Shown here piece after piece: positions 4,472-4,720 of a stretch of 5,541 nucleotides of DNA; the stretch's first letter is position 1, and every line of letters begins with the position of its first letter. A program made the translations under genes and the position numbers. Source of the stretch: a virus. Its lineage: Monodnaviria; Loebvirae; Hofneiviricota; Faserviricetes; Tubulavirales; Inoviridae. The notes below the pieces were generated by a model. That model had not been told where the DNA came from. It saw only the letters and a list, made by a program, of their open reading frames with translations, and made no database searches. The DNA is taken from IMG/VR virus record IMGVR_UViG_2585427969_000012, one strand, 5' to 3'.

Positions 4472-4720
4472 ATGTCTGTAAAAAATAAGGCGCGTGACCG
4501 ACTTCCCGGTGGCCGCCTTAAGTCTTATCGTCGTGTAGGTTCACATTTTGCCAGTTGTGCCAGATGGTTTGATAAATCGCCGTCCTGGTATCGCAATATG
4601 ATGATGACCAGGCCTGAGCGTCGTGAAGTCAGAAGGCTTCTCAATCAGGTAATGCGTGGTCATGATGCTGACGGCATTGCTTTTCCGGTCAGTCATCGTC
4701 CGTTTGTTTATTGGTGGTGA
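4472..4720 (+). CDS. Hypothetical small basic protein (82 aa) in the dif-proximal module; function unknown, possibly DNA-binding, regulatory or recombination accessory
   Basis: Good SD (GAGGA, 6-nt spacer) before ATG 4472. The product is Arg/Lys-rich (MSVKNKARDRLPGGRLKSYRRVGSHF...RPERREVRRLLNQVMRGHDADG...). GC content is about 50 percent, against about 35-40 percent for the structural genes upstream. Confidence 0.5.
   Translation: MSVKNKARDRLPGGRLKSYRRVGSHFASCARWFDKSPSWYRNMMMTRPERREVRRLLNQVMRGHDADGIAFPVSHRPFVYWW

Follow-up and report, generated by a model that had tools for sequence, protein, structure and literature searches.

A small basic-protein gene with a conserved leader and hairpin at the dif-proximal end of CUS-1/YpfPhi-type filamentous prophages, a possible mobile cargo cassette

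The filamentous phages YpfPhi and CUS-1 modestly raise the fitness of Yersinia pestis and Escherichia coli K1 in animals, and a review of these elements points to the open reading frames (ORFs) of unknown function that lie at their ends (PMC4266046). Two of these ORFs, YPO2280a and YPO2281, adjoin the attR site, are common to YpfPhi and CUS-1, have no predictable function and are absent from CTXPhi, which has ctxAB where they stand (PMC4266046). With respect to integration, CUS-1 and YpfPhi are classed with CTXPhi, which needs no phage factor for this step (PMC4246890). Here we analysed a stretch of 5,541 nucleotides (nt), IMG/VR virus record IMGVR_UViG_2585427969_000012, hereafter called the window. 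It covers the right-hand part of a filamentous prophage of the CUS-1/YpfPhi type that has integrated at dif of E. coli, and at positions 4472-4720 of its plus strand it carries the gene of a basic protein of 82 amino acids (aa), one of the end ORFs named by the review as a place to look for the cause of the fitness effect.

The original prediction had presented this ORF as a candidate transcriptional regulator or accessory factor of Xer recombination. The gene is indeed conserved in Xer-exploiting prophages, but the folds that were proposed for its product are absent, and the helix-turn-helix (HTH) repressor of the phage is a different gene. At roughly even chances, we favour a reading that makes the 82-aa gene the payload of a mobile cargo cassette gated by its leader, with a dose-sensitive role in maintenance or in interference with the host rather than in regulation.

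The protein encoded at 4472-4720 starts from an ATG codon and is filed in RefSeq as WP_001399975.1 under the label hypothetical protein. It is 100% identical to the copy in Y. pestis NCTC5923 (YpfPhi) and is equated here with YPO2280a by position only. As described from the sequence beforehand, it is rich in Arg and Lys, with 14 Arg and 4 Lys residues (22%), a net charge of about +12 and an isoelectric point of 11.5, and it is hydrophilic, with no hydrophobic stretch. Its Shine-Dalgarno (SD) sequence, read as AGAGGA at 4460-4465 on the plus strand, is conserved, lies 6 nt before the ATG and is buried in a hairpin that is discussed below. Homologues are present in other inoviruses and Xer-exploiting elements; 34 of them are close, nearly all 82 aa long, and their genera include Salmonella, Pantoea, Brenneria, Morganella, Xenorhabdus, Pectobacterium and Klebsiella. 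The ratio of nonsynonymous to synonymous substitution rates is 0.08-0.26 over 17 pairwise comparisons, which denotes purifying selection, and the solitary chromosomal copies described below are likewise under purifying selection. The homologues, this selection, the constant length, the conserved start and SD, the 153 clusters of the wider family and the integrity of the ORF in a window damaged by deletions show that it is a genuine gene, already on record as an ORF without a function. Only its small size and the absence of annotation could speak for a chance ORF in an intergenic, structure-rich region, and the selection, length, start and SD conservation and family clusters rule that reading out for all practical purposes. 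A 180-aa antisense ORF at 4541-5083 on the minus strand was rejected as an artefact of a one-base deletion; it spans 127 codons in an intact relative and is not conserved at other loci. Literature searches on the RefSeq accessions and on puvA turned up nothing relevant.

Upstream of the gene, at 4401-4445 on the plus strand, lies a previously unnoticed leader mini-ORF of 14 codons and a stop, MALTFMGYEQYDIF (ending in ...GYEQYDIF-stop), which is conserved upstream of the close homologues and was found in all 29 of their distinct upstream regions. Within its last eight codons and stop, codon positions 1, 2 and 3 hold 2, 2 and 7 variable sites, respectively, and all differences in the G, Y, E, D, I and F codons and in the stop are synonymous (for instance GGG/GGA, GAA/GAG, GAC/GAT, ATC/ATT and TAG/TAA). 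This pattern is a coding signature. In the solitary cassettes of Pantoea and Brenneria, homology to the window begins at about 4397, coinciding with the start of the leader. Two weak sigma-70-like promoter matches lie on the minus strand at 4383-4427, directed leftward from inside the leader.

Folding and alignment place the end of the leader (GAC AUC UUC UAG GUA) in an RNA hairpin at 4434-4476 on the plus strand, where it is paired to the SD region (4455-4466) and to the AUG (4472-4476) of the 82-aa gene. The core is a 12-bp stem of 4437-4448 with 4455-4466, to which RNAalifold adds the pairing of GACAU (4434-4438) with AUGUC (4472-4476). Among 24 distinct sequences, 97.2% of the alignment cells are paired, compared with 39-58% when the partner strand is slid, and two pairs carry double changes. 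Twelve divergent relatives have the same architecture with covarying apical stems: in locus L081, in plasmids of Halioglobus, Proteus and Salmonella, and in L078, L079 and L003 the apical stem is wholly different, with its complementarity kept. No family in Rfam fits the leader hairpin or the hairpins downstream of the gene.

The upstream mini-ORF recurs in most of the family lineages examined. The leaders of distant relatives finish in ...DIF-stop, or in EHF-stop or DSL-stop. In two other subfamilies, whose proteins begin with MAHY.. and MSRTY.., a strong SD is followed by a start-stop unit, ATG-TAG-GTA, or by a 3-codon ORF, and in both these units lie 25-35 nt upstream of the main AUG. The UAG-GUA stop context is thus common to the 14-codon leader of the window and to the distant start-stop mini-ORFs. 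At two tailed-phage or other loci an ordinary upstream gene overlaps the main start instead of a mini-ORF. Because the UAG-GUA mini-ORF recurs across the family, it is natural to read translation of the payload as leader-dependent; judging from sequence conservation, it appears to depend on ribosomes translating the leader or terminating on it. Tyr and Gly are conserved beyond the paired stretch as well, a hint that the leader may also act through its peptide. Loci L023, L025, L091, L092 and L093 each show a strong GGAG, a gap of 6-7 nt and then an ATG-TAG-GTA start-stop mini-ORF before the main ORF.

An exhaustive profile search (E<=1e-3, representatives at 50% identity) collected 153 representative clusters, mostly of 50-130 aa, which share the C-terminal core P-x-W-W...T-R-P-x-R-R...G-x-D-p-D...P...K-P-H-x-Y-Y-W. 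In the protein of the window this core reads SPSWYRN..TRPERRE..GHDADG..FP..HRPFVYWW, and the protein belongs to this large, unnamed protein family carried by mobile elements, here called YPO2280a-like. An HTH or a DUF3653 (XafT-like) fold had been raised as a possibility, and neither occurs in the protein, in 142 members of the family or in the AlphaFold model. A Pfam scan of the protein at E<=1 gave no family at all, and the 142 members have no consistent Pfam or PHROG family. Searches of the protein against NCBIfam and PADLOC gave nothing meaningful; matches to JetB (E=0.004 over 60 residues) and DrmE (E=0.34) were discarded as unusable, and the marginal match in PHROGs, phrog_12343 (E=1e-3), is to a family of unknown function. 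AlphaFold performed poorly on 19 close sequences (predicted local distance difference test, pLDDT, of 51) and gave a usable model, with a pLDDT of 76, on the alignment of 142 sequences. In this model the sole long helix spans residues 38-61 (pLDDT above 90), is Arg-rich and is not part of a helix-turn-helix, the basic N-terminus is poorly ordered, and the C-terminal tail is extended and aromatic. The N-terminus reads MSVKNKARDRLPGGRLKSYRR, and the LTG, WAGFXF and TPE motifs of PSB15 are absent from it. Among solved and viral structures, neither sequence nor structure comparison revealed any similarity to the protein; a profile match among PDB sequences to the N-terminus of human Prp4 (KKPHIYY, E=0.01) was judged to be a short motif shared by chance.

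The 82-aa gene keeps its place where the phages around it diverge. The order of a small basic ORF followed by dif, which the original prediction proposed to check, is kept across Enterobacterales in related prophages: secretin, 82-aa gene and, 130-2,000 bp further on, dif follow one another in Escherichia, Yersinia, Brenneria alni and several Xenorhabdus prophages. In YpfPhi the order is secretin, 82-aa ORF, 65-aa ORF and attR/dif, the same as in the window. The position given to the gene beforehand, between secretin and dif, was accordingly right as to its two neighbours, but a second small ORF between the gene and dif (4904/4916-5095) had been overlooked. Between loci where identity is down to 26-48% for the secretin, about 42% for Zot and 27-30% for pIII, the 82-aa gene retains 59-79%, so it has either been exchanged between phage lineages or is more tightly constrained than the structural genes. 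In Pantoea piersonii and a Brenneria species a solitary gene stands beside dif with ordinary chromosomal genes upstream, and no Xer site was found to the left of these solitary cassettes. At two Pantoea loci (L006, 9432-10402, and L071) the cassette of leader and gene follows a WapI-like immunity gene at a distance of about 75 nt and is itself followed directly by dif; one Pantoea copy has an additional small ORF between cassette and dif. Klebsiella has a related copy beside dif that is truncated. A degraded tandem prophage of Klebsiella spallanzanii (L018, 9803-10150) has a secretin fragment fused to residues 33-82 of the 82-aa protein.

Beyond filamentous phages, the family is found in the accessory regions of tailed phages, beside Acb1, RNA ligase and PNKP, or beside Acb2/Tad1- and Tad2-like genes, and beside an endolysin. 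It is also found in integrative elements with integrases, ParA, methylase or RP-C. Plasmid stability regions are a further context, with ParA and a PIN gene accompanied by a HigB-like gene. On a Halioglobus plasmid a member lies near ParDE, KfrA and a tyrosine recombinase; on Acetobacteraceae plasmids, 24 of which carry the family, a member stands between BrnTA and VapBC; and a Salmonella IncFIB plasmid carries another. Fic with HigBA-like genes, YafQ/DinJ and HipBA are among the other neighbours. These surroundings, usually toxin-antitoxin or stability genes, are the contexts of accessory, maintenance or conflict genes, and not those of a phage-specific regulator or assembly protein.

Xer-type sites adjoin relatives of the gene in a metagenomic element that bears an integrase, in Proteus plasmids and in the Halioglobus plasmid. 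The first of these homologues (L081, 57% identical) follows an integrase fragment, and 31 nt separate its end from a dif site; for the Halioglobus copy, an exact XerD arm is found at a distance of 1.2 kb. Three of seven independent non-inovirus lineages of the subfamily have an exact 11-mer XerD arm no more than 1.5 kb away, with a chance expectation of about 0.001 per locus. A unit on a Proteus MOBQ plasmid consists of a 28-bp Xer-type site, a leader, a hairpin, a 76-aa gene, a terminator and a second Xer-type site; the two sites are directly oriented, about 405 bp apart, and have the family gene alone between them. One such site reads TGTGCGCTTAA-GCTCCC-TTATGTTAAAT. The mutual homology of two Proteus plasmids ends exactly at the end of the second Xer site, and a third has an extra module with YafQ/DinJ bounded by the same kind of site. 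The Proteus MOBQ plasmids L083, L087, L088 and L089, whose backbone comprises Rep and an HTH gene, carry arrays of units between 28-bp XerC/XerD-type sites. No Xer-type site was found near the homologues at L003/4, L078, L079, L082 and L090, nor near any member of the two other subfamilies, and among the more distant lineages of the family roughly one in two lacks a nearby Xer site. For the phage, the idea of a second Xer site left of the cassette was rejected; the window has a site on the right side only.

On the reading we favour, the cassette would be made up of the leader mini-ORF, the hairpin that hides the ribosome-binding site and start codon of the payload, and the 82-aa payload itself. 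A ribosome that completes the leader would open the hairpin, through reinitiation coupled to termination or through a pause at the ...DIF-UAG end, and the payload would be made only at a gated, probably low, level. The cassette would be cargo at the dif-proximal end of the phage, outside the core of replication, assembly and integration functions, because the 82-aa gene outlasts diverged structural genes, because it occurs in solitary copies, because it occupies the slot of ctxAB in CTXPhi, and because UPPhi phages integrate at dif without it (PMC7307601). The Arg-rich helix and the aromatic tail would most likely bind nucleic acid or a conserved host protein. From these features and contexts we infer, for the biological role, an addiction-like or anti-defence-like factor, neither an HTH regulator nor a protein of the XafT type.

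The DNA downstream of the gene is rich in structure, and the stem-loop and inverted repeats reported there beforehand are present. A hairpin at 4705-4752 on the plus strand, seen by folding, covers the stop codon with a perfect 8-bp core at 4720-4739 and is a variable patchwork among relatives. An inverted-repeat search found a long hairpin with 21-nt arms at 4790-4833 on the plus strand, and smaller hairpins lie at 5100-5220, in the region 5090-5260 (z = -2.4). The single strand at 4700-4900 folds better than shuffled sequence (z = -3.6). Among enterobacterial relatives, the solitary cassettes included, hairpin 4790-4833 hardly varies, even less than the coding sequence; locus L064 has another stem in its position that is still complementary. 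It had been suggested that the stem-loop and inverted repeats could be binding sites of the protein. Hairpin 4790-4833 is not an obligate partner site, since Xenorhabdus loci that keep the gene do not have it, and it is not a classical terminator, since a T-run is absent. A packaging signal, a minus-strand origin, a stabiliser of the mRNA 3' end or a binding site are candidate roles for it.

Between the 82-aa ORF and dif, the second small accessory ORF (4904/4916-5095, plus strand; 9618-9815 in L001) encodes 65 aa and corresponds to phrog_6642, WP_001298440.1 and, by position, YPO2281. In the window its 3' end is frameshifted by a one-base deletion at about 5049. Its homologues in Brenneria and some Xenorhabdus phages are 40-79% identical, and it has no Pfam family. 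We rejected it as an obligate partner or antitoxin of the 82-aa protein, as it is missing from several loci that keep the 82-aa gene.

As to the prophage itself, Pfam and PHROGs identify a Zot/pI-like protein and a secretin in the window. The secretin (pIV; PHROG 1012 and Pfam Secretin) at 3143-4383 on the plus strand lies directly upstream of the 82-aa gene and is split by deletions into three ORFs. The E. coli prophages L001 and L002 are about 99.5% identical to the window over its whole length, the alignment with Y. pestis (L005), at about the same identity, reaches up to dif, three E. coli genomes match the flank beyond dif, and 704 of 5426 complete E. coli genomes (~13%) have DNA matching this end of the prophage. 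Against the E. coli prophage most similar to it, the window shows 21 missing bases, three substitutions and no insertions. The missing bases fall mostly within short homopolymers or dinucleotide repeats, at positions that include 120, 665, 1086, 3081, 3905, 4028, 4033, 4894, 5049, 5119, 5252 and 5460. They break the genes of pIII, Zot, the secretin and the last small ORF, leave the 82-aa ORF and its leader untouched, and look like sequencing or assembly error rather than biology. The dif site at the right prophage junction lies at 5250-5277 on the plus strand, where a match to a dif-like site is found and none is expected by chance; its XerC arm has lost two bases relative to all close relatives. 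At the junction between tandem copies, homology stops at 5264, within the central region of dif.

In the attP of the phage, a GC-rich stem is flanked by two dif-like sites in inverted orientation, as seen in the 9,565-bp circular form NZ_CP128883.1 (L084, 9190-9350) and at 811-910 of L002. The sites read GGTGCGCATAA-TGTGCG-ACTCGTTATGT and, inverted, GGTTCGCACAA-TGACG-TTATGCTAAAG, and single-stranded attP adopts the forked-hairpin fold of CTXPhi (z = -7.4); only the left arm lies within the window. The RstR-like HTH repressor of the phage is encoded by a separate gene outside the window, at the position of RstR, in agreement with the published account (PMC4266046). A 248-kb Klebsiella pneumoniae plasmid, NZ_CP132684.1, contains two matches to the 82-aa gene, which suggests that plasmids, too, can harbour the phage, perhaps at an Xer site of their own.

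Several observations weigh against the leader-gated cargo cassette. The payloads of most leader-coupled type I toxin systems are hydrophobic, and the 82-aa protein is not. Covariation in the hairpin is modest among close relatives, amounting to the two double-change pairs, because coding and SD function also constrain both arms, and folding of the RNA at 4398-4485 gives a z of only -2.0. The promoter-like matches on the minus strand at 4383-4427 are no more numerous than in shuffled sequences and would matter only if an antisense RNA controlled the leader. The searches returned no homologue of known function, and the role is assigned from gene context alone. Finally, the repeated adjacency to Xer sites could reflect a real function in Xer recombination and not passive carriage.

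This last point leads to the most serious alternative, in which the protein acts directly on XerC/XerD or on Xer sites as an analogue of XafT with an unrelated fold; it might then activate recombination independently of FtsK, give it directionality or stabilise the integrated state, both for the phage and for Xer-bounded mini-modules. We regard such a role as unlikely, though several observations speak for it: dif adjoins the gene in those inovirus loci whose sequence covers the dif end, the L081 homologue ends close to dif, XerD arms accompany three of the seven lineages, the Proteus units have two sites and a break in homology, and the gene surpasses the structural genes in conservation, as expected for a partner of conserved host Xer proteins. 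However, DUF3653 and HTH are absent, the attP is a CTXPhi-type forked hairpin, of a class described as needing only XerC and host replication (PMC4246890), and dif modules normally carry genes that have nothing to do with recombination (PMC13141974). Moreover, the loci and subfamilies listed above have no Xer-type site, and the cassette has no second site on its left in the phage. A bolder version, which we find quite doubtful, would make the basic protein the new-fold effector of an unrecognised class of Xer-linked mini-cassettes, modulating XerCD recombination or coupling it to the translational state of the cell. If true, such an effector would let phages, plasmid modules and chromosomal cassettes be captured, kept or exchanged without FtsK and, acting at dif and at plasmid Xer sites, would be the functional counterpart of XafT in Enterobacterales and beyond.

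Packaging or origin-binding roles, and that of a transcription factor, are less likely than a direct role in Xer recombination. A helper of assembly or replication that binds the downstream hairpins in single-stranded form, as packaging signal or minus-strand origin, is improbable. Strongly structured DNA does lie directly 3' of the gene, just as the packaging signal of Ff phages follows gene IV, and hairpin 4790-4833 is nearly invariant, with its pairing kept in the variant. PSB15 offers a precedent for such a protein (bioRxiv 10.1101/2024.03.19.585677), but its DUF3653 motif is absent from the 82-aa protein, homologues also occur in settings without filament assembly, namely tailed phages, plasmids and chromosomes, the solitary chromosomal cassettes remain under selection, and the Xenorhabdus phages keep the gene and not the hairpin. 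We consider it highly improbable that the protein regulates transcription of phage genes as an RstR- or RstC-like repressor or antirepressor. Its small size, basic character and likely binding to nucleic acid speak for such a role, and RstC too sits at the end of its element in RS1; yet none of the 142 members has an HTH or other DNA-binding domain, an HTH repressor already occupies the RstR position, the family occurs in unrelated elements that have no target genes in common, and tblastn found no relative in a Vibrio phage.

With neither a regulator nor an XafT fold, but with a broad mobile family and a conserved putative gate, an anonymous ORF has become a testable one. The leader and its hairpin would represent a new element, a conserved translational gate at the end of these phages, and the Proteus cassettes suggest that Xer-bounded modules, so far seen mainly in Acinetobacter, exist in Enterobacterales.

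Among described systems, the closest are YPO2280a/YPO2281 of YpfPhi and their equivalents in CUS-1, where the protein and the gene order are the same as in the window; the YpfPhi and CUS-1 literature examined does not mention the leader ORF, the hairpin, the wide family or the Xer-module contexts. XafT of TLCPhi, which combines HTH-XRE and DUF3653, resembles the 82-aa protein in being small, phage-encoded and placed near the attachment site of an Xer-exploiting element. Unlike XafT, the 82-aa protein has neither DUF3653 nor an N-terminal XRE-type HTH, nor any likeness in sequence or fold, and the attP of its element is of the CTXPhi type and not, as in TLCPhi, a double-stranded site of the TLC type recombined XerD-first. 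PSB15 of the Xanthomonas phage phiLf-UK is likewise small and basic, comes from an integrative filamentous phage, combines a basic helix with a disordered tail and has structured single-stranded DNA nearby, and it binds the packaging-signal hairpin of phiLf (bioRxiv 10.1101/2024.03.19.585677). It differs in its N-terminal DUF3653 hairpin, its WAGFXF motif and its gene on the negative strand, and the relatives of the 82-aa protein extend outside filamentous phages.

The Proteus cassette resembles the dif modules of Acinetobacter Rep_3/OrfX plasmids in its bounding 28-bp sites, toxin-antitoxin neighbours and homology breaks (PMC13141974, PMC6449649), whereas its sites are directly oriented rather than inverted and its host genus is another. 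A search with tblastn of four family members against a plasmid collection found no Acinetobacter plasmid, and the idea that 'orf69' of the Acinetobacter dif modules belongs to the family gained no support from that search, which included the 69-aa P0059; orf69 itself was not compared. In CTXPhi, ctxAB holds the same slot as the 82-aa gene, between the assembly and secretion genes and the right attachment site (PMC4266046). The two products show no relationship, and the 82-aa protein has neither toxin-like nor secretion features. In hok/mok of plasmid R1 and in the ermC attenuator, the SD of the payload is held in a hairpin, which ribosomes open when they translate a short upstream frame, and genes of the hok/mok type occur in plasmid stability regions, in prophages and as solitary chromosomal copies. 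The payload of hok/mok is a membrane peptide, whereas that of the 82-aa cassette is hydrophilic and highly basic, and there is no sequence relationship between them; the architecture is nevertheless alike, with a buried SD and an upstream frame that are read here from sequence.

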